DNA of 64,000 nucleotides from a virus: IMG/VR virus record IMGVR_UViG_3300036770_007703, positions 1 through 64,000 of that record. The stretch is one strand, 5' to 3'. A program made the position numbers and the translations under genes. Shown here piece after piece: positions 21,988 to 36,885 of this stretch. Every line of letters starts with the position of its first letter. Within the stretch, counting starts at the first letter, position 1. The notes beneath the pieces are model-generated. The model had not been told where the DNA came from. It saw only the letters and a list, made by a program, of their open reading frames with translations, and searched no databases.

Positions 21988-22422
21988 ATGTCTGGCACGC
22001 TGGAATTTGATATCAGCGCCACTGGCCAGGACCTGGTCCTAGAGCTTGCGCTAGATGGCAAGATTTTCTGGCGCGGCAATCCTGGGCTGGTCATGACCAC
22101 AGTGACACACGAGTTCGATGACACCAAATTCCAAGATCATTGTGCCACTGCCACATTGTCAAACAAACTACCCCATCACACCATGTTGGACTCACAAGGA
22201 AACATAGTGCATGATCGTGTTGTGCGCTTGCATGACCTTCGTCTGCGGGGACGCAGCATATGGCATCAGATACAAGGCACCAACATCTATCGACACGACG
22301 GCAACGGCGATGCCCAGATCCAGGATCATGCTTTTTTTGGCGATCTCGGCTGCAACGGCACAGTGAGCGTGGAGTTCCGCAGTCCGGTGTTGTTGTGGAT
22401 GCTAGAATATCCTGGCGCATAA
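21988..22422 (+). CDS. Hypothetical protein
   Basis: ATG 1 nt after the previous stop. Confidence 0.6.
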   Translation: MSGTLEFDISATGQDLVLELALDGKIFWRGNPGLVMTTVTHEFDDTKFQDHCATATLSNKLPHHTMLDSQGNIVHDRVVRLHDLRLRGRSIWHQIQGTNIYRHDGNGDAQIQDHAFFGDLGCNGTVSVEFRSPVLLWMLEYPGA

Positions 22423-22429
22423 ATAAGTG

Positions 22430-23356
22430 ATGCGCAAATTAGTGATCATCCCTGGTGGTTTCCACCCTTTCCATGCCGGGCACAAGGCTCTCTACGATGC
22501 TGCCCAGGCGGCTTTTCCCTCGGCCGAAATCTATGTGGCCGCTACAGCAGACACCAGCAACCGACCTTTTCCCTTTGAAGTCAAACAAAAGCTGGCTCAC
22601 CTAGCTGGTATACCCAAGCACCGATTCATCCAAGTGCGATCACCGTTCCAAGCTCGTGAAATCACTCAACACTTTGATCCCAACGATACCCAGCTGATTT
22701 TTGTGCGCAGCGAAAAAGATCGAGAACAACAGCCACAGGCCGGTGGCGTCAAACGCGATGGCACGCCGGGTTACCTGCAACCTTACAAACGCAACGGCCT
22801 TGCTCCCATGACTCAGCATGGTTACATGGCCTATCTACCTGTGGTGCAATTCGCCGATGGCATGACTTCGGCCACAGAGATCCGCGCCAAATGGCCGGAA
22901 ATGCAGCCCGAACAAAAAGCTGCGCTGATCAACAAACTGTATCCCGCCACACAGGGCAATGATCGTCTCATCGACGTAGTGGTGAAAATGTTTGACACTG
23001 TGATGGCACCTTCCGAACCCAAAGTCAAAGAAGCTGTGCTGATCAATGATCCCGATGCTGGTGTGCAGATACAACCCGACGGCGGCATGGGCACCTGGGA
23101 CGAAGCCAGCTTGGTCAGCAATCTCGCACGCAAGTTCGCTGACATGGTGAACATGGTCAAGAATCAGAACTATCAGGGACTGTATCATGTGTTGTACAAG
23201 TCAGGTGCCACAGAAAACATGGTGCGTGCTTTGGCCGAACTGGAAGGTTTCCAAAAGCAGCAGGGTCGCAGACCCATCGCTCGTGGACGCTCCATCGATC
23301 TCACTGACTATCTCGACGAAAAAAGAACCGATCAAGAAACAACCAACCGGGATTGA
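22430..23356 (+). CDS. Cytidylyltransferase-like (HIGH) nucleotidyltransferase with C-terminal extension
   Basis: IPGGFHPFHAGH and SATEIR motifs; TAAATA at 22420. Confidence 0.8.
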   Translation: MRKLVIIPGGFHPFHAGHKALYDAAQAAFPSAEIYVAATADTSNRPFPFEVKQKLAHLAGIPKHRFIQVRSPFQAREITQHFDPNDTQLIFVRSEKDREQQPQAGGVKRDGTPGYLQPYKRNGLAPMTQHGYMAYLPVVQFADGMTSATEIRAKWPEMQPEQKAALINKLYPATQGNDRLIDVVVKMFDTVMAPSEPKVKEAVLINDPDAGVQIQPDGGMGTWDEASLVSNLARKFADMVNMVKNQNYQGLYHVLYKSGATENMVRALAELEGFQKQQGRRPIARGRSIDLTDYLDEKRTDQETTNRD

Positions 23357-23362
23357 TACTGT

Positions 23363-23521
23363 ATGCGTGCTCGTGAATTCGTCGGCGAAAAACAAGATGC
23401 CTGCTACCACAAGGTAAAAAGCAGATACAAGGTGTGGCCAAGCGCCTATGCATCTGGTGCATTGGTACAGTGCCGCAAGAAAGGTGCCAAGAACTGGGGC
23501 ACTGGCGGAAAGAAAAAATGA
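23363..23521 (+). CDS. Small basic protein MRAREFVGEKQDACYHKVKSRYKVWPSAYASGALVQCRKK... (52 aa; absent from ORF track)
   Basis: Translated by hand. MRAxEF leader; the WPSAYAS module is familiar from T4-like cyanophages. ATGA overlap with the next gene. Confidence 0.8.
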   Translation: MRAREFVGEKQDACYHKVKSRYKVWPSAYASGALVQCRKKGAKNWGTGGKKK

Positions 23522-23925
23522 GACAGTACATCAACCTCCTGGAAGCCATCGAACGGGGCTGTCCTCCTGCCACACAAAGCATCGATCTCAACCTCGAGAA
23601 TCGTCAGAAAGCCATCGACGAATATCACTATGGTCCGCTCAATCCTGCAGAGCCCAACGAAGAATACTGGCAAGAGTTGGCTGACAAGTGGAACACCGAT
23701 GACATCGAGTCGGTGAAACAGAATCGCTGCGGCAACTGCGCAGCCTTTGACATCACAGAAAAGATGTTGGACTGCATAGCCCGGGGCATCGGTGAGGAGC
23801 CGGGCAGTGATCCGCACGACACCATTGATGCTGGCCAGTTGGGCTACTGCAAGTTCCTCAAGTTCAAATGTGCTGCCAAGCGTACCTGTGATGCTTGGGT
23901 GGAAGGCGGACCTGTTCGAGACTGA
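23518..23925 (+). CDS. Cys-rich hypothetical protein
   Basis: MRQYINLLEAIE leader; CGNC..F, GYC, C...RTC..W metal-binding-like pattern. Confidence 0.7.
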   Translation: MRQYINLLEAIERGCPPATQSIDLNLENRQKAIDEYHYGPLNPAEPNEEYWQELADKWNTDDIESVKQNRCGNCAAFDITEKMLDCIARGIGEEPGSDPHDTIDAGQLGYCKFLKFKCAAKRTCDAWVEGGPVRD

Positions 23926-23926
23926 T

Positions 23927-24592
23927 ATGAGAGCACAGGAATTCGTCCGAGAAAAGATCAATCCCAGCATACTCGAGCCCGATTTCTCTGAAGAAAAAAC
24001 AGTGATGATCCAAGGCGAGCCCTACGTGCTGCGGGCATCCACCTTGAACAGTCGCATGGTACCACAGATACGCATCGAAGCCATCGCTCCCAATGGCAAG
24101 AGCGTGGGCTATGTGAGATTCGTGGTACACAATGCCGATCAGCGCCCGGGGTGGTTTTCCCGCCCCGAAGAACCTTACTTGTCGGCAGGAAATCTCTCGG
24201 TGTGGAACGACTACAAGCGCCGCGGCATAGCTTCGGCCATGTACAACTTTGCACGTGAGCTGGGCAACGACATCCAGCCCAGCGGTACACAAACCGATCA
24301 AGGTCGTGCTTTCTGGCGAGCTGGTGCCGGTGAACGTGATCTCCAAGTCATGTCGGAAAATCTGCGCAAGTGGTTCCGTGAAAAATGGGTGCGGTTCAAC
24401 CCCCAAGGCAAGATCATGGGACCATGCGCCCGGGGTAGCAGCCGAGAAGGCAAGCCCAAGTGTTTGCCACAAAGCAAGGCACACGCCCTAGGCAAAAAAG
24501 GTCGTGCATCAGCTGCGGCCAGAAAGCGCAAGCAAGACCCCAATCCCGAACGCCGGGGCGCTGCCCGAAACGTGGCCACAAAGAAAAAATAA
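23927..24592 (+). CDS. GNAT acetyltransferase-like domain fused to a basic module
   Basis: MRAQEFVRE leader; V..DYKRRGIASAMY (acetyl-CoA motif A) and QTDQGRAFW; then LRKWFREKW...KPKCLP module. Confidence 0.75.
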   Translation: MRAQEFVREKINPSILEPDFSEEKTVMIQGEPYVLRASTLNSRMVPQIRIEAIAPNGKSVGYVRFVVHNADQRPGWFSRPEEPYLSAGNLSVWNDYKRRGIASAMYNFARELGNDIQPSGTQTDQGRAFWRAGAGERDLQVMSENLRKWFREKWVRFNPQGKIMGPCARGSSREGKPKCLPQSKAHALGKKGRASAAARKRKQDPNPERRGAARNVATKKK

Positions 24593-24614
24593 AAATTTGG
24601 CCGTCGTACTGCCA

Positions 24615-24652
24615 CTCTCGTAAATATATGCATATATTACCTACCGAGAGGA
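24615..24652 (+). promoter_or_regulatory. Hairpin containing a late promoter and covering the RBS
   Basis: CTCTCG (24615-20) pairs with CGAGAG (24645-50). Inner perfect palindrome AATATATGCATATATT (24623-38). TAAATA at 24621. Confidence 0.6.
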
Positions 24653-24656
24653 TCAA

Positions 24657-25562
24657 ATGGCAGACCAAACCCAAGAACAGCAAACTCCCGCTGGACAGCA
24701 ACAAGTCACAGTAAACGTAGACTATCTACGCACCACTCGTGTGCATATCTGCATGCCTTGTTATGGTGGCATGCTCACAGAAAGCACGTTCATGAGCTAC
24801 ATCAAATGGGCCAACACTTGTCGACAGCTGGGCATCGATTGGACCATGGAGACCATGACCAATGAGAGCTTGATCTCGCGTGCTAGAAACACCCTGGTGG
24901 CCAAGTTCCTCAACAACCCTGATTCGACACACCTCATGTTCATTGACGCTGACATTGGCTGGGAGCCTTGGCATCTACTGGTCATGCTGAATCGTGACGT
25001 TGATGTGATTGGTGGTCTCTATCCCATGAAGACTTTGCCGGTGCGTTGGGTAGTGAACGGATTTGATGGTGCCGAAACCGGGCCCGATGGGCTCCAGGAA
25101 GTATCAAAGACCGGTACCGGATTCATGTTGGTCAAGCGTCATGTGTTTGAAAAACTCAATGCACACCCTGCAGTGAAACCATTCCGCAATGACATCGGTC
25201 TTCCCAAGGAGCTGGACAAGCATCTCAAGACCTACTACGATACCGCAGTGCGGGAAAATCGCTACTACAGCGAAGACTGGACTTTCTGCGAAAACTGGCG
25301 TGACATCGGCGGCAAAGTATGGGTAGACAAGCGTGTGCTGCTCAAGCACACCGGTACCTATGTGTTTGATTTCCAGGCACAAGAACCCTTGTACAAGGCC
25401 TTGCATGAAATGGCACAGCAAAACCAGTCGCCCGTGGACAAGCCTGCCGCAGTGTCGGAATCCGCACCAGTGGCTGAGCCGCGAGTGGTGGCCACCAACA
25501 AAGATGCCAAGCCGGCTGCCAAACCCGCGGCCAAACGGGCCAACGCCAAGAAAAAAGACTAA
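24657..25562 (+). CDS. GT-A fold glycosyltransferase-like protein
   Basis: ICMPCYGG, SLISRARN, LMFIDADIGW (DxD), GTGFMLVKR, SEDW.FC. Confidence 0.75.
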   Translation: MADQTQEQQTPAGQQQVTVNVDYLRTTRVHICMPCYGGMLTESTFMSYIKWANTCRQLGIDWTMETMTNESLISRARNTLVAKFLNNPDSTHLMFIDADIGWEPWHLLVMLNRDVDVIGGLYPMKTLPVRWVVNGFDGAETGPDGLQEVSKTGTGFMLVKRHVFEKLNAHPAVKPFRNDIGLPKELDKHLKTYYDTAVRENRYYSEDWTFCENWRDIGGKVWVDKRVLLKHTGTYVFDFQAQEPLYKALHEMAQQNQSPVDKPAAVSESAPVAEPRVVATNKDAKPAAKPAAKRANAKKKD

Positions 25563-25576
25563 GCTAAATATAGTTC

Positions 25577-28500
25577 ATGCAGATACATGAACTAGGTCCT
25601 AGTCCCGAGTACCCCAAACCACTGTACGTCCAGGAGCTTGCACGCTTCTGGCGTACATCCTCGGAACAAGAACGCATGGCCATGCGTGTGGCCTTGAAAA
25701 TGAAGGATAGAGATGCTGTGATGCGTCTCTTGACCCCTTACACCGATGCAGCTCTGGCCGAAGCACGCCGGAAAAAAGGCCGCAAAGCCAGCCAGCGCCC
25801 AAAGAAAAAATTCCAGTACGGTGTTTATGGAGGATGGTTCTATCCCGGTTATCACAACAACAGCGGGGCTGACTCCAGCAGCTCGGACAGTGGTGCCGAG
25901 GGCGGCGGTGGCGAAAGCATACACGAAAACACTGAAAATCCACAAGACATCATAGAGAGATTCTCCAAAAGTTGTTGTCAATATCTCGGATTGAAAAATG
26001 CACCCCGGATACGGCTGCGACGAGATCCTGAATGGACACGCAGAAACGGCACGTTTGGTCGTTACATTGCCGAACCCCACAACACCATCGAGCTGGCCAC
26101 TGCGGGCCGACACATCATCGACATACTGCGCACACTGGCGCATGAAATGACCCATGCCGCACAAAACGAGCGTGTGGGCTTGCCTGACCATGCCGGGGAA
26201 ACTGGCAGCGAGTTCGAGGATGGTGCCAATGCCATGGCTGGTCGTATCATGCGCCACTGGGCCGAACAAGAACCCGAACTGTTTCAAGGCATGGATCTCG
26301 ACGAAAACTGGAGGCGCACTGCCGGGGCCGCCGCTGCCGCTGCGTGTATCGCCGGCACACCTGGATGCGCTACCACCAAGGGCGTGTCTGGCATGGATGC
26401 CTTGAGAACCATACAAACTGTTGGGCGTGCTGCGCAGAATCTTCCCACTCGTGCCGGTGCCGAAGAAGAGCTGCGACAAGAATTGAAAAACATAATCAAC
26501 AAAGGTCGTGGCACACATGTAGAACCTCGTATAAAAGAAACTGTTGCGACACCGGTCAAGAAAAACAAAGATGCTCATCAAGACTACTACAATTTTTTAA
26601 AAGCCAAGCGCATCGCAGGGCGTCCACTCAGCCGTCAAGAACAACAGTTTCTAATCAGCTTCGCGGCACTGAAAAATATACGTTCCAAGGAAGTGGCCGA
26701 AAGCTCGGGTTACATACCCACTGCGGCCGAAAAAAATGATCCACGTTTCTCCATGGCTCTCACTGTGGATGTTCGACCCGGTGAAACTGGCCGCCAAGCC
26801 AACAAGTTGGGTTTGAAGACTGACAGTGAAGGTCGTCCTGCGCTGTTGATGAAGCGACTCGAGAATCTCTTGGAAAGCGTCAAGACTGACGAAGATTGCT
26901 GGTCAGGATATCAACAACAAGGCATGAAGAAAAAAGGTAACCGCCAGGTACCCAACTGCGTGCCTGTGGCGGAAGACGAAGAGTTGATGGAAGTAGAGAT
27001 GAGCCCATCGGCGTTTAAAAAGTTCCTCAACAGTCCCGAAGCCGAGGGTATCCGTGCCGGCTTCGAAGCCGAACTCATATTCCGCAACGCTCAGCACGAC
27101 AGCGACAGTGGTGAGAGCGAGCCCGACTGGGACATGGACGAGCGTACTGGTAGCATACAAGACATCATAGCCTTCTTCCAGGGTGGCGAAAACGGCATGA
27201 CCGGTCGACAGGCTGATCGCTTGAACCAAGAACTCACAGAACAGTTCATGGACTGGGCCAGAGAAGAGTTTGCCAACAATTATTTCGATCAAGATCGTTT
27301 CATGTCATGGGCCGAAGAAAATGTGTGGCCCGACGATGCTGACAGTTATCGCGAAGATGCCCGTGCCAATCTCGATGATGAGGATGCCACCGACGAGGAC
27401 GTCGAGAAAGAAGCAGTGACCCTGTTCCGCGATGATGTGGAACGCGACTGGGATCGCAGCGGAGCCTGGTACGAGATGGCATCGGAAGAACTGTTCGACG
27501 AATTCATGGGCGACTTGGACGAATCAGATTGGTTAGATAGTGCTGGTCTCCGCTACATGAGCGATGTCTCCAACGAATACAGCCTGGACTGGCCTTACTG
27601 GACCGAAGGCAGTGGCGGCGGGGGCGAGCGTGATTGGCAAGAGATTGGTAATAGTCTGGCGCGTGCCACCAGCCGAGATGTCAAGGTCAGCAGTGGATAT
27701 CACAACACGCGTCGCGGCGATTACTATGTGATAGAACCCGACAGCAGCCTGGATTCTGATGATTCAGAAGATTTTGGACTAGAAGTGGTATCACCGCCCA
27801 TGCCCTTGCCCGAAGCCATCGAGCAACTGAACAAGGTCATAGACTGGGCCAACGGCGACGGTGATGCCTACACTAACTCAAGCACAGGACTGCACATGGG
27901 CGTGAGCCTGCCGTTCAAGGGCGAGGATGTGGATCCCATCAAGTTGATCCTGTTCATGGGCGACAAGAACATACTAGAAACATTTGGTCGAGAAAGCAAC
28001 ACCTATGCTCGATCCGCTTACGACAAATTGCAAAGCAAACTGAAAAGTCTGCGATATTCTAACTCGGAAAATTTTGAAAATGCGCTGAGTCTCATGAAAG
28101 GCAATCTCATCGAATTGGCCGAGCGCGAACTCAAGCGCGGTGTGTTGGGCGAAAAATATGTGAGCGTGAATCCGCACGATGGCTACATCGAATTCCGTGG
28201 GCCCGGTGGCGACTATCTCAGCAAAGAGAGCGAGATCGACGGTGTGTTGGAAAACACCATGCTGAGATTGGCCTATGCCATGAGCATAGCCGGCAGACCC
28301 GATCTATATAGACGAGAATACGCCAAGAAACTCTACAAGGTGTTGACTGGTTACAAAGGTGCCGAGATTTCCAAAGGTGCCCAAGACACCCGGTACAAAA
28401 CCCGTATCGAGACCGAGGGCGAAAATCCCTTTATGCGTTTGTTTGCCGACTATTCGGCCGGTGTCATCTCAGGCGATGAACTCAAGCGCCAGTGGGCCGA

Positions 28501-29452
28501 TACTGTGCTGGATGCCGAGCGTCAAAAAGACATGGAAGATGTACCTCTCTACACCACCACCGGTGAATACGAAGTGTACGACCGAAGCACTGGCACCCGA
28601 GGTGACCGAGACAGTTTCACAGTGATCGATACTTTCCGTGCCGACAGCGATGAACAAGCTCTGGAGATCGCACAGCAAAAATGGTCAGGCAAAGGCATCA
28701 GCTTTGGTGTGCGTGTGAAAGTAGTGGAGCCCGAAGGTAAAAAATCTTCCAGCCGCAGAGCCGAACTGGCCAAGCGTGTGACCCGCAGCACGCGGGATGT
28801 GGGCGAGCAACTGTGGCGCGTGAATCATCACAGCAGTGTCCGGTATGTGACAGCACGCAGCCAGGCCGAGGCCGTGAAAAAAGCCGTGAAGATGGATCGT
28901 GCATTCAACGATGTCGAGACCCGTGCCAGGATCGCCACCGATCAGGAAAAGATGCAATATCAGCAGGATCAGGAACGTGAGCGGTTGAGAAACGTGGCCT
29001 CGGGCGCGGTCGAAACACTCCGTAACACCAGCAGAGACCCCAATGCCAACTGGGCCATCGCTCGCAAACACAACGACGAAATCGTGATACCTTTCACTAG
29101 GAATACACAGCAAGAGGCCGAAAAGTACTTTAGAGACTGGATACAGGACAGAGTCGGTGGGCCCGATCAGTACAAATTGGTGCAGCTGGCTTCATCGGCC
29201 CAGCTCGGCCAACAGCAGGCTCTGGCTCGTGAACTAGAGCAGATGGCGGATTTACACAATCGAGCGATGGATGATGCCCAGGGTGAATGGACCGGTCATT
29301 GGATCGTGAGAGATGCCTCGGGACGAGAACTCACTAGATTCCACGGTATAGGCAACAATCAAAGCGATGCCAACCGTTATGCCATGAACTGGCTGCGACA
29401 AAACCCAGGACACATGCAGACAGGTGTCGAAGTAGTTCCGGAGATGCAGTGA
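25577..29452 (+). CDS. Large polyvalent protein: zincin metallopeptidase + amidoligase (COOH-NH2 ligase) domain + short modules
   Basis: RTLAHEMTH (HExxH); GFEAE...IEPDSSL...LEVVSPP...TNSSTGLH...YIEFR amidoligase motifs. TAAATA at 25565. Confidence 0.75.
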   Translation: MQIHELGPSPEYPKPLYVQELARFWRTSSEQERMAMRVALKMKDRDAVMRLLTPYTDAALAEARRKKGRKASQRPKKKFQYGVYGGWFYPGYHNNSGADSSSSDSGAEGGGGESIHENTENPQDIIERFSKSCCQYLGLKNAPRIRLRRDPEWTRRNGTFGRYIAEPHNTIELATAGRHIIDILRTLAHEMTHAAQNERVGLPDHAGETGSEFEDGANAMAGRIMRHWAEQEPELFQGMDLDENWRRTAGAAAAAACIAGTPGCATTKGVSGMDALRTIQTVGRAAQNLPTRAGAEEELRQELKNIINKGRGTHVEPRIKETVATPVKKNKDAHQDYYNFLKAKRIAGRPLSRQEQQFLISFAALKNIRSKEVAESSGYIPTAAEKNDPRFSMALTVDVRPGETGRQANKLGLKTDSEGRPALLMKRLENLLESVKTDEDCWSGYQQQGMKKKGNRQVPNCVPVAEDEELMEVEMSPSAFKKFLNSPEAEGIRAGFEAELIFRNAQHDSDSGESEPDWDMDERTGSIQDIIAFFQGGENGMTGRQADRLNQELTEQFMDWAREEFANNYFDQDRFMSWAEENVWPDDADSYREDARANLDDEDATDEDVEKEAVTLFRDDVERDWDRSGAWYEMASEELFDEFMGDLDESDWLDSAGLRYMSDVSNEYSLDWPYWTEGSGGGGERDWQEIGNSLARATSRDVKVSSGYHNTRRGDYYVIEPDSSLDSDDSEDFGLEVVSPPMPLPEAIEQLNKVIDWANGDGDAYTNSSTGLHMGVSLPFKGEDVDPIKLILFMGDKNILETFGRESNTYARSAYDKLQSKLKSLRYSNSENFENALSLMKGNLIELAERELKRGVLGEKYVSVNPHDGYIEFRGPGGDYLSKESEIDGVLENTMLRLAYAMSIAGRPDLYRREYAKKLYKVLTGYKGAEISKGAQDTRYKTRIETEGENPFMRLFADYSAGVISGDELKRQWADTVLDAERQKDMEDVPLYTTTGEYEVYDRSTGTRGDRDSFTVIDTFRADSDEQALEIAQQKWSGKGISFGVRVKVVEPEGKKSSSRRAELAKRVTRSTRDVGEQLWRVNHHSSVRYVTARSQAEAVKKAVKMDRAFNDVETRARIATDQEKMQYQQDQERERLRNVASGAVETLRNTSRDPNANWAIARKHNDEIVIPFTRNTQQEAEKYFRDWIQDRVGGPDQYKLVQLASSAQLGQQQALARELEQMADLHNRAMDDAQGEWTGHWIVRDASGRELTRFHGIGNNQSDANRYAMNWLRQNPGHMQTGVEVVPEMQ

Positions 29453-31074
29453 TGAGAGATTTATTGAACAAATTAGATGAAGTGTTGCTCGTTGAAAAAG
29501 CCCGGGGTCTGTTGTATCGTGATCCCGGTGATACATTTTTCCAAGGCACACTACAGTCTCCCACGGCCGAGATCGTGTTCCGCGATCTAGACTACTATCC
29601 GTCACAGCCCGGGGCCTATGACAGCTACGAAGAGATGGCCCAGGCCGGACAAAAATTAGCTGCCCAGTATCCCAATGGCATCATCTGGAGCAATCGACCC
29701 GGTGCTCGCAGTCGTGCTTTTGCTGTGCTCACTTTTGATGGCCCCGGCAAAGGTGAGACCACCAGTTTTGGTAGATTCTTTGATCAAATCAAGCCCGACA
29801 TGTCGGGACTGTGGAAGAACAATGAGCTGCCTGGCAACTGGCAATTGAAAAAGGCCACCAGCCTCAAAGGCAGTTACTACAAACTCAAGCCTTCGGATCT
29901 GTTTCCACCCGAGAGCAAATTTGATTCACCTGCAGACTGCATCTCCGGCATCGGCAGCAATGCCGACGCTTCGTCCCCGGGGCAGGAACAGGCCATACAA
30001 CAGATACTACCTGGCATGCAGATGCTGCTGAAAAAGCAGTATCCGATTTTCTCCAACATTGACCCCAACATGATATCGGCTGTGAGAGATGACCTCGGTG
30101 AAACCATTGGTCCCATAGCCATGGTCCAGGGCATGATCAAAGATGCCACGCTGGACAAAGCTCGAATAGACATACTCGGACAACGTGGCACATTCGCCGG
30201 CAGCCAAATTTACTTTCCGGCCAGCAAGATCAACGGTTTGGTCGACAGCTATCTCCTGCAGCCAGGTGGCGTCGAAATCGGTGTTTCCAGCAAAGGCGAA
30301 AGCGGGGCCAAGGCGTCGGTGAAGAACATCGCCGATGGTGTGGTGCGTGCCCGAGAAAAAGGCATGACCGATCTCTTAGACCAATACGCTGATCAAGTCG
30401 AGATCATCGAGCGTGTGGGATCTCTGGGCAGCCGAGATTTGCCCTTGGTGCTGGGACAAGAGTACGGATACATCACCAAGAGCCAGGCCGCTGCCATACT
30501 CAAGCTGATAGATTCGGGTGCCAAAAATCTCAATTCTGTCAATGTTGACAGCGAAGATCGCAAGGTCCTGCAAGGTCTCATGGATGAATACAAGCCCAAG
30601 ACCGACAACCCCAAATACAACGTGGGCTACCATGTGTTGGCGGTGCTGGCCAAGAAAGTCATGACCGACATCAACAAGGATCCCAAATTTGGAGAAGCCT
30701 GTCTCAAGTTTCTCAACACCAGCCCCATCGTGCAACTGCACCTCAAGGGACGCGAAGGCAAGGATTCGTACACGGTGTCGGGTTTTGATGTCAAATATCC
30801 TCCGGATTTCCGTGGCACAGTGGCCTTGGATGCATCAAAGGTGTATGCGGCCACCGGCACCAATGGTCGTGTGAGCTTTGCCTACAATCCCACGGTCGAC
30901 GCCGAAGCCTTGGTATCACCCGCAGACGAGCCCGGGGACAGTCCGGCGGCCTCTTCAGCGGCTGCTGTAGATCAAGATTTCGAAACACCGCGATCCAATA
31001 TCAAAGCTCGCAGAGAACCAGCGAAACCCGCCGGTGATCAAGCAGTGCTGGGAAGACAGCGCAGATCACGGTAA
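29452..31074 (+). CDS. Hypothetical protein, possible PD-(D/E)xK nuclease-like
   Basis: MRDLLNKLDE leader; FP....GLVDSYL....EIGVSSK pattern. Confidence 0.55.
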   Translation: MRDLLNKLDEVLLVEKARGLLYRDPGDTFFQGTLQSPTAEIVFRDLDYYPSQPGAYDSYEEMAQAGQKLAAQYPNGIIWSNRPGARSRAFAVLTFDGPGKGETTSFGRFFDQIKPDMSGLWKNNELPGNWQLKKATSLKGSYYKLKPSDLFPPESKFDSPADCISGIGSNADASSPGQEQAIQQILPGMQMLLKKQYPIFSNIDPNMISAVRDDLGETIGPIAMVQGMIKDATLDKARIDILGQRGTFAGSQIYFPASKINGLVDSYLLQPGGVEIGVSSKGESGAKASVKNIADGVVRAREKGMTDLLDQYADQVEIIERVGSLGSRDLPLVLGQEYGYITKSQAAAILKLIDSGAKNLNSVNVDSEDRKVLQGLMDEYKPKTDNPKYNVGYHVLAVLAKKVMTDINKDPKFGEACLKFLNTSPIVQLHLKGREGKDSYTVSGFDVKYPPDFRGTVALDASKVYAATGTNGRVSFAYNPTVDAEALVSPADEPGDSPAASSAAAVDQDFETPRSNIKARREPAKPAGDQAVLGRQRRSR

Positions 31075-31081
31075 ATAGAAA

Positions 31082-31900
31082 ATGCGCCTTGTAGACTTGT
31101 TCGAAGATTCTCCCCGCGACCGATTTGAACGTGATCCCTCGGCCACGGGCAAGCTGGTGATCTTTGACATCGACGATACCTTGGTGAACACCACTACAAA
31201 AGTGGGTGTGCGCAGAAATGGCAAACTTGTCAAAAAACTCAACAGCCATGATTTCACGCACTACGAACTACAGCCCGGCGAAGAGTTTGACTTTGGAGGA
31301 TTCCGCGACGCTCGCGAATTCTACACACAGGCCCGACCCATCCCGGGCATGATCCGACAGCTCAAACAGGACATAGAGTCGGGCAACAAGGTGATAATGC
31401 TCACAGCACGCAGCGACTTCAATGATCGTGACGTGTTTCTGGATACATTCCGGCAGTACGGTATTGACATGGATCGCATACACGTTTACCGCGCCGGCAA
31501 TCTGGTCACCAAAGCCGCCACAGAAGAAAAGAAAAAGATAATCTTGAAGCATTTGCTGGGCAAGCATCCCTACGAAAAGGTCATCATGTATGACGACTCG
31601 GTGCCCAATCTCAATGCTTTCCTCAGCCTCAAGCAAGACTTTCCTTACACAGAATTCTATGCCTGGCATGTGGATCCCAATGGGCAGGCCGCGGAATATC
31701 ACAGAACCAATGCAGGCGTCAAAGAAAACTTTGCGGATGGTAAGGTCAAAGGTAAGAGTCGCCCTGGCCGTGTGAAGCGTAGTGGTGCTAGTTGTAAAGG
31801 CAGCGTCACAGACCTGCGTGCCCGGGCAAAAAAGTATGGTGGTGAGCGCGGCCGGATGTACCATTGGTGCGCTAACATGAAGAGCGGTAAGAATAAGTAA
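31082..31900 (+). CDS. HAD phosphatase (PNKP-like) fused to a basic module
   Basis: MRLVDLFE leader; IFDIDDTL, LTAR, MYDDS..NL; C-terminal ENFADGKVKGKSRPGR module. TAAATA at 31072. Confidence 0.8.
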   Translation: MRLVDLFEDSPRDRFERDPSATGKLVIFDIDDTLVNTTTKVGVRRNGKLVKKLNSHDFTHYELQPGEEFDFGGFRDAREFYTQARPIPGMIRQLKQDIESGNKVIMLTARSDFNDRDVFLDTFRQYGIDMDRIHVYRAGNLVTKAATEEKKKIILKHLLGKHPYEKVIMYDDSVPNLNAFLSLKQDFPYTEFYAWHVDPNGQAAEYHRTNAGVKENFADGKVKGKSRPGRVKRSGASCKGSVTDLRARAKKYGGERGRMYHWCANMKSGKNK

Positions 31901-31904
31901 ACAC

Positions 31905-32108
31905 ATGAGAGCGCGAGACTTCACCAACCGTCAGTTAAAAACACTGAACACTTATCGTGTTCGCCTGCGTTTAAAGCAACCGGGTGGGTATACCCAGCAG
32001 CTGGACACCACGATCATGGCGAGAAATCCCATGATGGCTAGACGCATGTTGCAACAGCAATACAGCAATCGCAATGTCATGGTAGGAAATCCCCGACTCA
32101 TCAAATAA
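31905..32108 (+). CDS. Small hypothetical protein with MRARDF leader
   Basis: TAAGTA upstream; leader motif. Confidence 0.7.
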   Translation: MRARDFTNRQLKTLNTYRVRLRLKQPGGYTQQLDTTIMARNPMMARRMLQQQYSNRNVMVGNPRLIK

Positions 32109-32128
32109 AACACGCGGATAAATACAAC

Positions 32129-32428
32129 ATGGGAAAAAAGAACAGTCCATGTTTTGTCCGTGCGGTGTTTGATCTCGACTGCGAATGGGAGGGATTGCCT
32201 CCGGTATATCGCATCTATTTCAACGAAGAGCTTTTTACCGAGCGTGAATGGAGATGGCAAAATGTCTATCTCCAGGAAAATCTGCGCATAATGGCACCTC
32301 CCGGACGTTACGTGGTGCGTATACAGCCCGTGGGCCCAAATCTAGCCATATTCAGACCCTCCAATCATCGTGTCATGGCCGGCAATGCCGAATGGATAAG
32401 ACCAGACATACTGGAGATACGTCGATGA
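32129..32428 (+). CDS. Hypothetical protein
   Basis: Follows TAAATA at 32119. Confidence 0.65.
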   Translation: MGKKNSPCFVRAVFDLDCEWEGLPPVYRIYFNEELFTEREWRWQNVYLQENLRIMAPPGRYVVRIQPVGPNLAIFRPSNHRVMAGNAEWIRPDILEIRR

Positions 32429-32601
32429 GAGCTCGAGAATTCATACGCGAAAACTCAGACAGTGTCACCAGCGGTGACATAGCCACAGCAGCGGCACCCA
32501 TTGGTGGAGTTATTAGTCGCATGTTGAAACCAGTGACAACTAAATATAGAAATGCTGTGACAAATTACACCCTGGAAAAGACAAAAAATGTTGGTAGATG
32601 A
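32425..32601 (+). CDS. Small protein with MRAREFIRE leader
   Basis: ATGA overlap; leader motif. Confidence 0.7.
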   Translation: MRAREFIRENSDSVTSGDIATAAAPIGGVISRMLKPVTTKYRNAVTNYTLEKTKNVGR

Positions 32602-33031
32602 CCTCAAAACACTGTTGGCCACGCAATATGCGTTCGTGATCAAAGCACAGTTCTTCCACTGGAACGTGGAAGGTCCTGACTTTGCACAATTACATCGATT
32701 CTTTGGCAAGATCTACGAAGAGGTGTACGAAAACAGCATAGACCAGACCGCAGAATTCATACGCATACTCGACGACTACACACCTGGCAGTTTTGAGAGA
32801 TTCGGCGAGCTCAGCCTCATCACTGGACAGATCAAGGTACCGCGTGCCAGTCTCATGATCCAGGAGCTCTTGGCCGACACACAGACCTTGATCGATCAGC
32901 TCAACACCACGTTTGATGCAGCCGAGGCCGAAGATCAACAGGGCATCATGGACTTCCTGGCCGGACGAATCGACGCCATGGGCAAACACCGTTGGATGCT
33001 GAAGAGTTTCCTGAAAGAAGATCGAGCATGA
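32588..33031 (+). CDS. dps: Dps/ferritin-like DNA protection protein
   Basis: FHWNVEGPDFAQLH..F..IYEE.....D..AE.IR.L ... KHRWML. Confidence 0.9.
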   Translation: MLVDDLKTLLATQYAFVIKAQFFHWNVEGPDFAQLHRFFGKIYEEVYENSIDQTAEFIRILDDYTPGSFERFGELSLITGQIKVPRASLMIQELLADTQTLIDQLNTTFDAAEAEDQQGIMDFLAGRIDAMGKHRWMLKSFLKEDRA

Positions 33032-33789: not shown

Positions 33790-33791
33790 TC

Positions 33792-34955
33792 ATGAACCTA
33801 CAAGATCTATTTGAGAACAACGAACCCACTGCCATGGCCCAGGCTGTGACACGGAGGATACTGAGCACACGCAGTGACCTCTTGAGCCGCTACGGAGTCG
33901 AAGCTGTGAGCCAGGCCATTGATGATGTCACAGGCGACGGTGATTGGGAAGAGATCGGCAGCTCAGACGTGAGTGCTTATGTGAGATATGTGGAAGATTA
34001 CCTGCGAGATCACCATGGCAGCCGCGAGGAGATGGCGGACCGAAAGCCATTCGCCGAACAAGGTGTCTCGGAAGGCTTCATAGACACCATAAAGGGTGCT
34101 GCCAAAGAACTCACCAGAGACAGCCTGCAGAAGAAGATCAAGCAGGCCTGGGAAAATACATTCTGGCCCCGGCATGTGGAGCCTGCACTGAACCGCATCC
34201 AGATCGATGGTCGACCATTCCGCAAAATGGTCTTGGGAGAGCCACGCATGATCGAAAATGATCGCAGCCAGCGTGCCTTGCTCAAGCAGTATACCGTGAA
34301 CATAGTGTTCCCCATCGACCCCCAGGACTGGTCCGGTGATGAGATCCGGTATCTAGAAGGACAACTGCAAGACATCCAAGATGGAGCATGGAATCCCAAG
34401 GTACAGGGGCTGGGATTGGTCAGTTTCGACCAGCCCATGAAGAGTTTCCAATATACCCGCAGCGAGACACCCGACCTTGTGATACCTGTGAGGATCACCA
34501 GCCTGGACATCAATCGAGGATTGGTGGGCGAGCAAGGTGTGGCGGAAAACCAACGCCGTTTCAACAACGTCAACGACGATGATCTCTATGCTGTAGATCC
34601 ACGAACCAAAGAGATCATAGCTCACCTTGGCAATCCCTACAACAATAGAACGGCTGTATTGATCAAAAAGAGACAGCATGAACAGCAGGGCCATGAGGTC
34701 ATGTCAGGCATGCGAGCTAAATTCAACAGAGATGTCAACGAGCAACAGATCCAAGAAGATCGTGTTGTGCCTGTGGTCGTCATTGGATCTGACAACAAGA
34801 AAATAGATCGTCGAATTCGTATCGCACCTGGCACCAAAGATCCCATACTTGCCATCATGAGATACTACGCCCGGCAAGGACAAGAACTTTACTCGGTGAA
34901 CGGCCAACGAGTGGGAGCGGGTGCTCTGGCCGAAGCAGACTCAGATCATGAATGA
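33792..34955 (+). CDS. Modular hypothetical protein with EQGV(S/A)E linkers
   Basis: MNLQDLFE leader; EQGVSE and EQGVAE repeats. Confidence 0.7.
   Translation: MNLQDLFENNEPTAMAQAVTRRILSTRSDLLSRYGVEAVSQAIDDVTGDGDWEEIGSSDVSAYVRYVEDYLRDHHGSREEMADRKPFAEQGVSEGFIDTIKGAAKELTRDSLQKKIKQAWENTFWPRHVEPALNRIQIDGRPFRKMVLGEPRMIENDRSQRALLKQYTVNIVFPIDPQDWSGDEIRYLEGQLQDIQDGAWNPKVQGLGLVSFDQPMKSFQYTRSETPDLVIPVRITSLDINRGLVGEQGVAENQRRFNNVNDDDLYAVDPRTKEIIAHLGNPYNNRTAVLIKKRQHEQQGHEVMSGMRAKFNRDVNEQQIQEDRVVPVVVIGSDNKKIDRRIRIAPGTKDPILAIMRYYARQGQELYSVNGQRVGAGALAEADSDHE
34056..34547 (+). repeat. Imperfect 18-bp direct repeat GAACAAGGTGTCTCGGAA / GAGCAAGGTGTGGCGGAA flanking a module
   Basis: Copies at 34056-34073 and 34530-34547, 15/18 identical. 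Confidence 0.65.
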
Positions 34956-35130
34956 TGGATTGTTGCGCGAGTATCGATTCGAAGTGATCGATCGCCAAGA
35001 GCGGATCACCGAATACTTGATCATGGCCAACAATTTTGAACAAGCCCGGCTTGATCTCAGCAAACTCATCATGCCCGACACTGTGATCAAACTGATCGAT
35101 CGACAGGCCAACCCGGATCGATATCTATGA
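34948..35130 (+). CDS. Small hypothetical protein
   Basis: Coupled ORF of 60 aa. Confidence 0.55.
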   Translation: MNDGLLREYRFEVIDRQERITEYLIMANNFEQARLDLSKLIMPDTVIKLIDRQANPDRYL

Positions 35131-35786
35131 GAGCAAAAGAATTCGCCCAATCAGTAAAAGAATATGAACAGGACACCACTCGATCAAACGAGATAGAGAG
35201 AGTGATGACTCGAGCCGGTTACAAAATGTTGGGTGGCGGTGCTGAGGCAACAGCATGGGCTCGACAGTCTGGACCAGTCATCAAAGTGATCATGCCTGAT
35301 GAACACATCATAAACACCGATCCGGCCATGCAGTCATTTAAACGTTTCTATAAACTTACTAAAAAATATCCCAGCAAACATTGGCCAATTTTTTACAGTA
35401 TGAAGGATGAGAATGGTGTCGCTTCAGAGTTCGCCAAGTTCCGAATCGGAAACAGAAAGTACATGCAAATAGCCATCGAGAGACTGCAAGAACTAACTCC
35501 CAGAGAAGAAGAACTTGTAGAAGAAATGTCATCGCTTATTGCTGATGGAACATCATACAAAGAGTTCGTGGAAGAAGAACTTCCAGTGATAAAAAGATTC
35601 AATCCACCCACATACAAAATAGCACAGGCAATAAAACTTCAGTTGCCCACGTTATGGGCTGCCATGGAAATGGCATACAAAAAATCAAGTCATAGATACG
35701 AGTGGGATCTACATGGCGGCAATGTCATGAAACGTGCAGATGGAACCCTGGTCATCACCGATCCTTTTATACAATGGGCAGGTTGA
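35127..35786 (+). CDS. Protein kinase-like (PKL fold) protein
   Basis: MRAKEF leader; LGGGAEA (Gly loop), VIK, DLHGGNVM catalytic loop, VITDP. Confidence 0.8.
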   Translation: MRAKEFAQSVKEYEQDTTRSNEIERVMTRAGYKMLGGGAEATAWARQSGPVIKVIMPDEHIINTDPAMQSFKRFYKLTKKYPSKHWPIFYSMKDENGVASEFAKFRIGNRKYMQIAIERLQELTPREEELVEEMSSLIADGTSYKEFVEEELPVIKRFNPPTYKIAQAIKLQLPTLWAAMEMAYKKSSHRYEWDLHGGNVMKRADGTLVITDPFIQWAG

Positions 35787-35787
35787 T

Positions 35788-36075
35788 ATGAGAGCCAGCG
35801 AATTCGTCACCGAAAAGTGGAGCCAAAAATACAAGCGTAGCATCAACTGTGATCGTCCCCGTGGATTCAGCCAGCGTGCGCATTGTGCTGGGCGCAAGAA
35901 AACCGACGAAGAAGAGCAATTGGATGAGCTGAATTTCTTGGGCAGTCCCTGTACCAAGGATTGCAGTGGGCATCGTGCCGGTTATGAATGGAGCCGTCGA
36001 AACGGAGGACGAGCTCCGGCTTCTTGGAGTCCCAGTTTCAACAAAGGTGCGGCTTTACAACGATCGGGCAAATAG
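35788..36075 (+). CDS. Small two-module Cys-containing basic protein
   Basis: MRASEFVTE leader; KWSQKYKRSINC..PRGFSQRAHC and CTKDCSGHRAGYEW modules. Confidence 0.75.
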   Translation: MRASEFVTEKWSQKYKRSINCDRPRGFSQRAHCAGRKKTDEEEQLDELNFLGSPCTKDCSGHRAGYEWSRRNGGRAPASWSPSFNKGAALQRSGK

Positions 36076-36089
36076 TGTATACTAAAGGC

Positions 36090-36323
36090 ATGCCCAAGAA
36101 TCCTGTGATTTTCGAAAGTCCCGATGGCGGACATACTGTGTACCAAAGAGAAATAGGCAGCGATCATCGAGAACTCATCATAGAGGACTCGACCATACTC
36201 ACTCAGCGCGAACGATTGGTGGAAAAACAGTTATGGCACAACATACTGGAGGCCAGCCGCAGCGATGCCGTGCTCCGAGAACTGTTGGATCGAGCTCTTG
36301 TCTACTATGAACTCAAAAAATAA
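36090..36323 (+). CDS. Hypothetical protein
   Basis: IFESPDGG.TVY.R motif; TATACT -10-like hexamer upstream. Confidence 0.65.
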   Translation: MPKNPVIFESPDGGHTVYQREIGSDHRELIIEDSTILTQRERLVEKQLWHNILEASRSDAVLRELLDRALVYYELKK

Positions 36324-36885
36324 ATCCATATCCGAAAGCAGCGGATACAGCCTCAAAGGCAGCTTCACTCGAGACCTCACCACCAGCAAGGTATGGTTGC
36401 TGATGGAACTTGCTCGCATACGACCACGAGTGGGAACTGTTTACAATCTAGGTTCTTGGTATGGAAATCTGGCCATGTACTTCAATCTGCTGCCCCTGGT
36501 TCGAGCTCGCAAAATCATCAATGTAGAACAACAATCTCAATGGTTGCGCCAAGGTGCACGCATGCTGCGCCTCATGGGTGCCCAGAACGTGATCAACATG
36601 CACCAAGATGCCAATGATCTAGACTATCCACAGCTGGATGGCAACGGAGTGGTCATCAATACCAGTGTCAACGACATGCCTGGACGAGACTGGTATGATC
36701 ATGTGCCAAACAACACACTGATGATCATGCAGACCCGAGATCACAATCCCAATCGCAGCGACTACGAAAACAACGACGAAATCTTGCAAGCGTTTCCCTT
36801 GCGCCGTGTGCTGTATCGCGGCCGCCTGGATCTCACAGACCCTGAAACCGAATACACACGCTACATGGTGATTGGCATCAAATGA
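36307..36885 (+). CDS. Class I SAM-dependent methyltransferase-like
   Basis: SKVWL, NLGSWYG, INVE, DAN, VINTS, RYMVIG. Confidence 0.65.
   Translation: MNSKNKSISESSGYSLKGSFTRDLTTSKVWLLMELARIRPRVGTVYNLGSWYGNLAMYFNLLPLVRARKIINVEQQSQWLRQGARMLRLMGAQNVINMHQDANDLDYPQLDGNGVVINTSVNDMPGRDWYDHVPNNTLMIMQTRDHNPNRSDYENNDEILQAFPLRRVLYRGRLDLTDPETEYTRYMVIGIK

Follow-up and report, generated by a model that had tools for sequence, protein, structure and literature searches.

The region 22420-36885 of the window, a 64,000-nt stretch of viral DNA analysed in full, is probably the locus at which a T4-core jumbo phage encodes its head cargo, modules that would be leader-targeted, trimmed by a gp21-type protease and injected. 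A T4-like leader heads a changing set of enzymes and small basic proteins, and modules are joined at a protease motif, so the products are probably head-packed and protease-trimmed. Sequence comparison shows that leaders and joints are portable, that complete relatives encode the protease and that a late-type promoter motif is shared. The source is an uncultured giant T4-related phage, represented by a fragment of 25% completeness (CheckV); the contig examined, which includes the window, comprises 85,288 bp, and both strands were covered. Relatives were fetched with the phrog_1574 protein as anchor, which has 444 relatives in IMG/VR. The comparison set consisted of the contig and 80 related IMG/VR loci (1.54 Mb in total), presence and absence of locus genes were counted over 40 full-flank relatives, and five complete relatives (337-353 kb) were available, one of which (G001) was used for capsid, scaffold and promoter comparison.

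We infer core binding, cleavage, presence in the virion, ejection and the role of each module as follows. Cargo would start with a propeptide of 9-12 residues, M-R-A-x-E-F-[I/V/L]-x-E or the Alt-like M-x-L-x-D-L-F-E, acting like the T4 capsid-targeting sequence by binding the scaffolding core, so that cargo would be enclosed upon shell formation. A gp21-type prohead protease would cleave after the Glu of hydrophobic-x-Glu, removing the leader, and would split multi-module proteins at their joints (..GVKE/NFADG, ..EVAE/SSGY, ..PVAE/DEE, ..QGVAE). The head would then contain free enzymes (GNAT-like, HAD phosphatase, kinase-like, zincin and amidoligase) and many small basic Cys-containing peptides, all of which would exit with the DNA at infection.

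Table 1. Genes of the putative cargo block, with N-terminal starts and the joints found in their translations.
Position	Strand	Protein	N-terminal start	Joints	TAAATA and Glu codons
22427..23356	+	Nucleotidyltransferase (cytidylyltransferase/NMNAT-like, HxGH motif)	no leader		TAAATA at 22420
23363..23521	+	52 aa; small basic Cys module KQDACYHKVKSRYKVWPSAYASGALV.CRKKGA.NWG	MRAREFVGE
23518..23925	+	135 aa; Cys-rich	MRQYINLLE (leader-like)
23927..24592	+	221 aa; GNAT-like domain, basic module NLRKWF..PKCLP	MRAQEFVRE	VMSE144/NLRKWF	leader Glu 23951-23953; joint Glu 24356-24358
24657..25562	+	301 aa; phrog_1574 protein, backbone	no leader
25577..29452	+	1291-aa polyprotein; basic/Gly-rich stretch, SprT/Wss1-like zincin (HEMTH at residue 189), Ala-rich segment, SSGYIPT module, CW.GY..PNCVP module, amidoligase region, C-terminal region	MQIHE/L.. 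(short N-terminus)	SIHE117 (before zincin), DLDE243/NWRR (before Ala-rich segment), EVAE375/SSGY, PVAE466/DEE (before amidoligase region)
29452..31074	+	540 aa; orphan	MRDLLNKLDE (leader-like)
31082..31900	+	272 aa; HAD phosphatase domain, basic module NFADGKVKGKSRPG	MRLVDLFE (leader-like, Alt-like)	GVKE215/NFADG	TAAATA at 31072; joint Glu 31724-31726
31905..32108	+	67 aa; basic, MRARDFTNRQLKTLNTYRVRLRLKQ	MRARDF (no Glu at residue 9)
32129-32428	+	99 aa	no leader		TAAATA at 32119
32425..32601	+	58 aa; NSDSVTSGDIATAAAPIGG after leader	MRAREFIRE
32588-33031	+	Dps/ferritin-like	no leader		TAAATA at 32541
33792..34955	+	387 aa; three modules	MNLQDLFE (leader-like)	EQGVSE94/GF, EQGVAE252/NQ
35127..35786	+	219 aa; kinase-like	MRAKEFAQSVKE (12 residues)
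35788..36075	+	95 aa; KWSQKYKRSINC module, LNFLGSPCTKDCSGH module	MRASEFVTE	QLDE47/LNF (between modules)

Six copies of the leader MRA-x-(E/D)-F lie in the contig, each at an ORF start between 23363 and 35788, and these, like the four leader-like starts, are all present as originally noted. Outside the six gene starts MRA[RQKS][ED]F has no occurrence on either strand of the 85,288-bp contig. Across the contig and the 80 related loci the motif was found 126 times, always on the coding strand, and reversal of the motif and each of three permutations gave no match there. It heads 111 distinct proteins of at least 18 unrelated groups in the 80 loci, with I, V or L at residue 7 in 97 and Glu at residue 9 in 87; hydrophobic-x-Glu occupies residues 7-9 in 87 proteins, and no conservation is seen beyond residue 9. 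At these residues the tripeptide is missing from the other 24, and from two of the six contig leaders (31905 and 35127). Among the six, Arg2 is encoded by CGT or AGA and Ala3 by GCT, GCA, GCG or GCC, and no conservation was found in the DNA 5' of their starts; the leader is thus conserved at the level of the peptide. Leader types are also swapped between orthologs of the same cargo protein. In agreement with a predicted bias towards late genes, the leader is confined to the cargo block and one small terminase-adjacent cluster, and is absent from replication genes. These observations support a portable leader that appears to be under peptide-level selection and to end at a T4-type cut motif.

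The proteins behind these leaders are diverse. The 52-aa protein matches phrog_727 (E=1e-20), and its module occurs within cyanophage polyproteins after ..FVNE and ..MTE/GKDKK..; [LIM]xE precedes eight of its 11 internal copies in relatives, the other three being one residue off. Orthologs of the 135-aa protein keep M-R-x-[FIL]-I-[ND]-L-[LF]-E, and one relative (L072) has the module internally after ..RLSE. The GNAT-like domain shows a motif A (RRGIASAMY) and sub-threshold Pfam matches to Acetyltransf_7 (E=0.011) and Acetyltransf_1 (E=0.097), residues 137-220 of the same protein match phrog_727/23735, and its orthologs start with MRAQEFVTE, MRFKEFVTE or alike. The 272-aa protein matches DUF2608 (E=1e-6) and Acid_phosphat_B in Pfam and a polynucleotide kinase family in PHROG; its orthologs carry other leaders (MRAQEFANS-, MRAQELGSG-, MKSLARQLRE). 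The 67-aa protein belongs to a family of at least six small proteins starting MRAxDF/MKAxEI, and the 58-aa protein to one of 19 members (MRAxEFIxE/NASAG.T.SGSIATV) whose putative mature start is similar to the N-terminus of the mature major capsid protein in the clade (..KYLKE/NASAGSTVSGNIATL in G001). The kinase-like protein has 29 orthologs that keep M-R-x-x-E-F-x3-[VIM]-x-E/YE, with LGGG..A.., VIK and WDLHGGN..DP as invariant motifs; at an AF2 pLDDT of 53 the fold is unconfirmed. The 540-aa protein has no homolog in the 80 loci and no Pfam, PHROG or PDB match, and in the ESM Atlas its matches (scores 0.85-0.87) are confined to clusters of viral hypothetical proteins and a weak lead to a restriction endonuclease.

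In the 1291-aa polyprotein, Amidoligase_2 is matched above the cut-off (E=6e-7). The zincin has an HExxH motif invariant in 16 relatives, with SprT-like, M78 and MPTase matches below threshold. In the PDB, the top matches to its AF2 model (pLDDT 90.6) are without exception minimal zincins. Among the effector activities proposed originally, the kinase is assigned by motif and the nuclease-like activity is a weak lead. Relatives lend support to the joints of the polyprotein: in one (L061) the amidoligase is a separate gene with the leader ..RFREFIRE, starting exactly at the aligned PVAE/DEE joint, in another (L042) MRYKEILE/ACWKGY.. places the CW.GY module directly behind a leader, and many show ..[LIV]xE/(A/S)(S/T)GYIP contexts that back the SSGYIPT joint.

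Similar exchanges are found for other modules. The NFADG module has Glu at P1 in 39 of 41 unique internal contexts, with a hydrophobic P3 as well ([LIVMF]xE) in 37, against a background rate of 1.75% per position, and in a relative it is free-standing behind MRAHEFVTE. The KWSxKYK module follows [LIV]xE in all 11 internal contexts. Coding-strand ORFs contain 54 copies of a fixed joint, QGV(A/S)E (43 unique contexts), and the other strand has none; the first module of the 387-aa protein is internal in relatives, behind ..QGVAE, and the second module of the 95-aa protein lies behind ELTE in a relative. Modules that one genome encodes as free-standing, leader-tagged genes are found internally in others, and the boundary falls on the same residue in both cases. 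The 1291-aa protein contains 26 hydrophobic-x-Glu sites where about 23 are expected, which is chance level. As the tripeptide is so common, the weight of the motif comes solely from the comparative junction test. All eight boundaries initially proposed are found in the translations. The junction counts support hydrophobic-x-Glu as a probable marker of joints between modules reshuffled among relatives.

Within the block described as an array of cargo genes, about eight genes lack a leader, among them the nucleotidyltransferase, the phrog_1574 protein, the 99-aa protein and the Dps-like protein, and several of the eight are conserved backbone. The nucleotidyltransferase (CTP_transf_like in Pfam, E=8.8e-4, below the cut-off; cytidyltransferase in PHROG) and the phrog_1574 protein (E=8e-38, with a weak glycosyltransferase-like match) are present in 40 of 40 full-flank loci, and the 99-aa and Dps-like proteins (the latter Ferritin in Pfam, E=1e-17) in 34 of 40 each. 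Cargo genes are found in 0-19 of the 40 loci, whereas backbone genes are found in 34-40. TAAATA, which had been linked to the cargo genes, is enriched (19 versus 8.2 expected, a number reached in none of 100 shuffles) and does precede several genes or operons, with 18 of 19 copies on the coding strand, mostly 4-30 nt 5' of an ATG. However, it also occurs outside the block, and in G001 it lies 5' of the portal, scaffold and terL genes as well as of cargo operons. By sequence it is a general late-type promoter-like motif and no marker of cargo.

No protease, capsid or scaffold gene, nor any other head gene, was found in the fragment, so the link to the protease rests on relatives. The prohead protease that the original prediction called for, although missing from the fragment, is encoded by all five complete relatives as a Peptidase_S77 (gp21 family) protein scoring 82-92 bits against a cut-off of 27. 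The capsid protein of G001 aligns LKE42/N with LTE65/A of T4 gp23, a known cut; a sequence search of G001 detected no gp22-type scaffold. PA5oct and MIJ3, the closest cultured phages for which a virion proteome exists, have the protease and lack the leader family. Portable leader, reshuffled joints, protease and capsid cut alignment all favour, in silico, the modular cargo first proposed.

The leader might instead deliver scaffold or core and DNA-counterion material, most fragments being expelled after cleavage or kept as inert internal peptides, with the enzymes acting during assembly on, for instance, packaged DNA or head proteins. T4 gp21 also degrades gp22, gp67 and gp68, some peptides of which stay in the head, the modules here include many that are tiny, basic and rich in Cys, and the 58-aa family mimics the mature capsid N-terminus. 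Nevertheless, the enzyme types (GNAT, phosphatase, kinase-like, zincin) are known injected categories (PMC5512222, PMC7824862), and the high turnover among relatives resembles arms-race cargo more than assembly machinery, which makes a purely structural role unlikely.

Less probable still is joint cleavage by a host protease or by the SprT/Wss1-like zincin that the polyprotein itself contains, with the leader targeting a non-head site or aiding translation or folding. All 40 relatives encode this zincin within the polyprotein, HExxH being invariant, and processing of polyvalent proteins has been ascribed to internal metallopeptidases (Iyer et al. 2017, PMC5512222), but leader and joint motif are also seen in dozens of separate zincin-free genes. 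Furthermore, Glu at P1 with a hydrophobic P3 is the gp21 rule, found at the aligned capsid cut site, and the leader matches the T4 targeting sequence at residues mapped by mutation. Very improbable is a shared start that is a nucleic-acid feature, either the translation-initiation region of coupled genes or the boundary of a recombination cassette, with no protein targeting. All six starts abut or overlap the preceding stop codon (as ATGA at 32425 and 35127), an arrangement that favours A as the first base of codon 2 and thereby Arg or Lys, and T-even internal-protein genes are thought to shuffle via conserved leaders (PMC9026906). Against this, the upstream DNA is unconserved and synonymous codons vary, conservation takes in Glu at residue 9 and then ends, and the same tripeptide rule holds at internal joints far from start codons; leader recombination is compatible with targeting and no substitute for it.

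Head cargo delivered by a leader has its closest parallel in T4 IPI, IPII, IPIII and Alt, unrelated proteins that share a short N-terminal propeptide. As originally stated, the T4 record and literature give MKTYQEFIAE (IPII/IPIII) and the gp21 cut rule; Alt starts with MELITELFDE and gp24 with MAKINELLRE. In IPIII targeting depends on residues 4 and 7 and processing on residues 8 and 10 (PMC9026906), and the F, I/V and E of the leader have the T4 spacing here, within the same ..E-F-I-x-E core. A single regular expression retrieves exactly IPII, IPIII, gp24 and Alt from 85 kb of T4, and four of the six leader genes plus one other gene from the contig. An Alt-like ..DLFE variant, the hydrophobic-x-Glu cut motif, a gp21-family protease in the lineage, a late-type promoter motif and a cargo set as variable among relatives as the internal-protein genes of T-even phages complete the likeness. 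In contrast to T4, the leader here has one residue fewer and begins with MRA instead of MKT, cargo types are far more numerous (at least 18 groups in 80 loci) and include enzymes, and many putative cargo proteins are multi-module chains with internal cut-type joints and a fixed QGVAE, which are absent from T4 internal proteins.

Giant phages of the phiKZ type (phiKZ, 201phi2-1, SPN3US) contain many head-internal proteins cut after Glu by a gp21-related protease, with propeptides thought to target them to the prohead. They differ in belonging to another lineage, in the motif A/S/G-x-E and in propeptides that usually exceed 100 residues and share no short leader. Like polyvalent proteins (PMC5512222), the 1291-aa protein is phage-encoded, joins a zincin-like metallopeptidase to small domains and further enzymatic ones, and is predicted to enter together with the DNA. 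That report makes no mention of capsid-targeting leaders or prohead-protease joints, whereas joints here obey the gp21 rule and modules also exist as separate leader-tagged genes. T4-like cyanophages encode polyproteins near the terminase genes, S-CAM8 gp114 (after terS) and S-SCSM1_29 (before terL), in which the same three small basic modules (KWF, DACY and CW.GY) are joined at [LIVMF]xE, the DACY module being 64-87% identical to its counterpart here. S-SCSM1_29 is labelled 'virion protein' in its record, a label untraceable to any table; S-SCSM1 virions were analysed by mass spectrometry. Its neighbour S-SCSM1_30 starts with MKTFKQFMSE. While these modules share one protein in the cyanophages, three genes carry them here: as a free-standing protein, as a fusion with the GNAT-like domain and inside the 1291-aa chain.

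Sequence comparison supports the original prediction that the block encodes cargo loaded into the phage head and cut there by a protease, on the strength of leader statistics, joints defined by homology, and a protease found in relatives. The leader-bearing proteins are probably targeted to the head and processed by a protease of the T4 gp21 type. The window covers the opening 64 kb of an 85,288-bp IMG/VR viral contig, 25% complete by CheckV, which carries almost all of its genes on the + strand. Its clamp loader has its closest counterpart in the PA5oct group of Pseudomonas jumbo phages (57.5% identity), followed by Phosso, RsoM2USA and Atu_ph07, and this kinship identifies the contig as part of a T4-core jumbo phage genome of about 340 kb. 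The whole block gave no megablast match among named phages; it is known from metagenomes alone. The leaderless phrog_1574 gene was used as the anchor for collecting relatives and has 444 related stretches in IMG/VR; 80 of these loci, with flanks of up to 10 kb, form together with the contig a comparative set of 1.54 Mb. Five complete relatives of 337-353 kb share the locus, three of them with terminal repeats.

All six predicted leaders are present in the window (see table), each at the beginning of an ORF whose start adjoins or overlaps the preceding stop codon, and MRA[RQKS][ED]F occurs at only these six sites in the contig. The 1.54 Mb contain 126 copies of MRA-x-[ED]-F, every one on the coding strand and a median of 8 codons behind an in-frame stop; controls with the motif reversed, or permuted in three ways, gave 0 each. 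The 80 loci encode 111 distinct proteins with this start, 51-614 aa long and belonging to at least 18 unrelated clusters. Residue 7 is I/V/L in 97/111 and residue 9 is Glu in 87/111, and an (L/I/V)-x-Glu ending is present in 87/111; from residue 10 on there is no conservation. Among the window leaders, hydrophobic-x-Glu stands at residues 7-9 in four of six and at 10-12 in one, and is lacking at 31905. A scan of the whole collection with a degenerate DNA pattern for MRAxEFIxE matched at least 120 stretches.

A DNA-level repeat could in principle account for shared starts, but is rejected on the evidence of the DNA upstream of the six leaders, which is not conserved, and by their synonymous codons, which differ (Arg2 is CGT or AGA, and Ala3 uses all four). 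Selection thus acts on the leader peptide. The EcoRI site GAATTC found in 5/6 leaders is nothing unusual, with 23 copies in the window against 19.8 expected. Orthologs of the HAD protein exchange leaders, carrying MRLVDLFE/ in the window (the slash marks a predicted cut after Glu) and MRAQEFANS-, MRAQELGSG- or MKSLARQLRE/ in relatives. The kinase-like protein retains its 12-residue leader, M-R-x-x-E-F-x3-[VIM]-x-E/YE, in 29 orthologs. One further window ORF, if read from an internal Met, would begin with a leader-like decapeptide; the SSGY behind it is also the beginning of the module that follows EVAE375/ in the polyprotein.

The T4 record (NC_000866), when translated, gives the MKTYQEFIAE named in the original prediction for both IPII and IPIII, MKTFKEFTS..ITE for IPI, MELITELFDE for Alt and MAKINELLRE for gp24. 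A leader pattern calibrated on T4 (M-x3-4-[ED]-[FIL]-[LIVMFAT]-x-E close to an ORF start) recovered exactly IPII, IPIII, gp24 and Alt from 85 kb of T4 as a positive control. On the contig the same pattern picked out one other gene besides four of the six leader genes, and in G001, a complete-genome relative, seven leader genes plus two matches likely due to chance. The single other contig match lies outside the window, in an ORF adjoining two large ORFs of 614 and 839 aa.

Coordinates of features in the window, the contig and related sequences (L-numbers are fetched relative sequences)
Feature	Sequence	Position	Description
Leader gene	window	23363	MRAREFVGE
Leader gene	window	23927	MRAQEFVRE
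phrog_1574 gene	window	24657-25562	leaderless
Polyprotein	window	25577-29452	1291 aa; zincin, small modules, amidoligase
Polyprotein start	window	25577-25930	MQIHEL, then short segment
HAD protein	window	31082-31900	272 aa
Leader gene	window	31905	MRARDF
Leader gene	window	32425-32601	MRAREFIRE; 19-member family
Dps/ferritin-like gene	window	32588-33031	Pfam E=1e-17; own TAAATA
Kinase-like protein	window	35127-35786	219 aa; leader gene
Leader gene	window	35788	MRASEFVTE
ORF with internal Met	window	36307-36885	MNSKNKSISE/SSGY..
TAAATA	window	22420, 25565, 31072, 32119, 58417, 18030 and others	often 4-13 nt before ATG
Other pattern match	contig	78731	172 aa; MTQWVDLLKE/NSIPEY
Polyprotein of relatives	L008; L014	10852; 10874	e.g. 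with nucleotidyltransferase domain
GNAT-like chain	L044	15624-17612	663 aa; three GNAT-like repeats
GNAT/lysozyme-like chain	L068	17336-18562	..GRGYIQLTGRDNY..
Capsid gene	G001 (L097)	226300-227517 (6300-7517)	..KYLKE/NASAGSTVSGNIATL
Leader-tagged paralogs	G001 (L099)	263121-263878	MRAREFIAE/, MRAREFITE/

The eight predicted internal boundaries ending in hydrophobic-x-E were all found in the translations. This motif has a background of 1.75% per position, and the polyprotein contains 26 sites against about 23 expected, without enrichment; raw motif counting was dropped as evidence for that reason, and junctions were defined by homology only. Where one genome has a small recurring module, named by its sequence, as a free-standing protein after a leader, longer ORFs of other genomes were searched for that module and the residues preceding it were read. 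The NFADG module has 41 unique internal contexts, with Glu directly before the joint (P1) in 39, of which 37 also have V/I/L/M at P3; P2 and P4 are variable. Hydrophobic-x-Glu precedes KWSxKYK in 11/11 internal contexts and DACY in 8/11, the remaining three being shifted by one residue, and ..[LIV]xE precedes the (A/S)(S/T)GYIP module in dozens of polyproteins. The pentapeptide QGV[A/S]E is a fixed joint with 54 copies in coding-strand ORFs vs 0 in opposite-strand ORFs; its 43 unique contexts have unrelated sequence on either side, and a 387-aa window protein contains two copies. One relative (L061) encodes the amidoligase on its own, in a gene with the start (V)RFREFIRE/SQELDEV, which aligns exactly to the internal PVAE466/DEELMEV of the window. 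Another (L042) encodes the chain MRYKEILE/CW-module..VSE/..KWF-module..LNE/DACY-module, and the same three modules are distributed over three genes in the window. Leader-tagged chains of relatives, one with three GNAT-like repeats and one with a GNAT-like domain joined to a lysozyme-like segment, illustrate the freedom with which modules combine.

The backbone of the block consists of leaderless genes. In 40 full-flank loci the nucleotidyltransferase, the phrog_1574 protein and the zincin part of the polyprotein are each present in 40, and a 99-aa protein and the Dps-like protein in 34 each. Leader-tagged cargo is patchy, found in 0-19/40. The Dps/ferritin-like gene kept in those 34 loci has no leader. 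In relatives the polyprotein opens with M-[ND]-I-x-E/L and a nucleotidyltransferase domain of about 220 aa (..GSNAAYTYTPHSDIDLHLVVD..); the window polyprotein keeps only six residues of that start, and an unrelated short segment replaces the domain. No link between the nucleotidyltransferase and the NMNAT-like proteins reported from cyanophage virions was found by tblastn.

Amidoligase_2 scores above its curated Pfam cut-off, and the HAD phosphatase near or above its own. The zincin has an invariant HExxH and sub-threshold SprT-like/M78/MPTase matches; its AF2 model (pLDDT 90.6) has as best PDB matches only minimal zincins, namely abylysin, IrrE, Spartan SprT and Wss1, all weak with E-values of 0.009 or higher. 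The GNAT-like domain has a sub-threshold profile match and motif A, the 540-aa protein is an orphan with a weak endonuclease lead only, and the kinase stays at the level of motifs because its AF2 model (pLDDT 53) is unusable. PDB sequence searches with these last three proteins returned no match.

The prohead protease expected by the original prediction is encoded by the relatives but not by the 85-kb contig, on which neither gp21 (PF03420) nor the gp23 capsid gene (PF07068) was found, the contig being 25% complete. Peptidase_S77 is present in 5/5 complete relatives sharing the locus, at 82-92 bits against a curated cut-off of 27. The gene order in the head module of G001 is portal, small protein, acidic protein, protease, helical Glu-rich protein, major capsid protein; its protease gene occupies 224562-225188. 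The 361-aa helical Glu-rich protein occupies the gp22 position between the protease and capsid genes, with no homology to T4 gp22 detectable by BLASTP (E=0.43). The propeptide of T4 gp23 has 65 residues and ends in L63-T-E65 (PMC5694885); BLASTP aligns this end with L40-K-E42 of the G001 capsid protein, followed by NASAGSTVSGNIATL, and the G001 protein is predicted to be cut after LKE42. A 19-member family of 58-67 aa leader proteins, MRAxEFIxE/NASAG.T.SGSIATV.., matches about 14 residues of this predicted mature N-terminus. These small proteins may compete as protease substrates or mimic the N-terminal arm of the capsid protein.

G001 has its leader genes in the same locus, at 54-73 kb, and in a pair (263.1 and 263.5 kb) immediately upstream of terL, with none among the replication genes, as anticipated. 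Both members of the pair are paralogs with a ..KGYPR end. The same pair of leaders, spaced about 370-400 nt apart, occurs on many IMG/VR contigs among the matches listed. The hexamer TAAATA, originally noted ahead of several cargo genes or their operons, is over-represented (19 copies vs 8.2 expected, reached in 0/100 shuffles), with 18/19 on the coding strand and most copies 4-30 nt ahead of an ATG; it is not specific to the block and also precedes genes outside it. In G001, TAAATA stands directly ahead of the portal, small head protein, acidic protein and terL genes as well as cargo operons. Its presence before both head genes and cargo fits late co-expression of the two. TAAATA often overlaps the TAA stop of the preceding gene, and most starts close behind it lack a Shine-Dalgarno sequence. 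If TAAATA is a -10 element of the T4 late type, mRNAs at many of these starts would be leaderless or nearly so.

Whether the released modules are injected effectors, or internal structural or counter-ion peptides, is about evenly balanced. A wider reading is rather doubtful: a leader and a few fixed joints (hydrophobic-x-E, QGVAE) would form a general plug-in grammar by which this clade of jumbo phages, abundant and uncultured, and T4-like phages more widely, could load almost any module into the head and free it as a separate molecule; the DACY, KWF, CW.GY and NFADG modules, which are small, basic, Cys-containing and widespread, would make up a hitherto unrecognised class of internal peptides that associate with the DNA and are delivered with it; and the mimics of the capsid N-terminus would regulate the prohead protease or compete as its substrates. 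If head loading is correct, T4 capsid targeting is no peculiarity of T-even coliphages: distant T4-core phages, the large environmental jumbo-phage clade behind the 444 IMG/VR loci among them, would share it as a conserved and expandable means of delivery. A simple sequence rule would then predict the phage proteins that accompany the DNA into the cell; these are the first to act against host defences, and genome annotation does not otherwise reveal them. The recurrence of many 'hypothetical' small basic modules in marine cyanophages would also be explained, and natural leader and joint peptides would be at hand to bring foreign proteins into phage heads, a use that the T4 targeting sequence already has in laboratory strains.

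Among cultured phages, segments of 365 records, for the most part genomes of T4-like cyanophages, are 64-87% identical to the DACY module; polyproteins there unite DACY, KWF and CW modules joined at [LIVMF]xE. These polyproteins lie near terminase genes: S-CAM8 gp114 follows terS, and S-SCSM1_29 is two genes before terL, next to S-SCSM1_30, which begins MKTFKQFMSE. S-SCSM1_29 is labelled 'virion protein' in its record. Virion mass spectrometry by the S-SCSM1 authors identified 45 proteins, 13 of unknown function (PMC9602691); in the part of that paper's supplement available to us, no table underlying the label was found. The nearest cultured relatives, PA5oct and MIJ3, encode a gp21-type protease, and no MRAxEF leader family was found in their whole genomes, so their virion proteome is not transferable. 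Literature searches turned up no account of cargo chains with leader tags and protease joints in either jumbo phages or cyanophages.

Polyvalent proteins are single phage polypeptides of two to fifteen unrelated domains, with a zincin-like metallopeptidase typically among them, and have been discussed in terms of internal zincins, injection and autoprocessing, with no tie to capsid-targeting sequences or the prohead protease (Iyer et al., 2017, PMC5512222). The window polyprotein likewise unites a zincin, Amidoligase_2 and small modules. However, polyvalent proteins adjoin virion or packaging genes, whereas the G001 polyprotein, at about 67 kb, is far from the head genes (221-228 kb) and terL (266 kb) and has only the promoter motif in common with them. 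Ejection proteins of the phiKZ type differ in their motif, (A/S/G)-x-E, where P3 here is V, I, L or M, and in their propeptides of over 100 aa, compared with leaders of 8-12 residues. The closer parallel is T4, in which the capsid-targeting mechanism with gp21 and the variable basic proteins bearing such sequences in T-even phages are already established (PMC9026906; PMC5694885). T4 propeptides of 10-19 residues direct proteins to the scaffolding core, and gp21 cleaves after Glu, in agreement with the original prediction (PMC5694885; PMC9026906). In IPIII, residues 4 and 7 are important for targeting, and residues 8 and 10 for processing (PMC9026906). Here too a short N-terminal propeptide is common to otherwise unrelated proteins: MRLVDLFE and MNLQDLFE resemble the Alt leader, and MRAxEF[IV]xE, though one residue shorter, aligns with the ..YQEFIAE of IPII and IPIII, keeping the spacing of Phe, Ile/Val and Glu.
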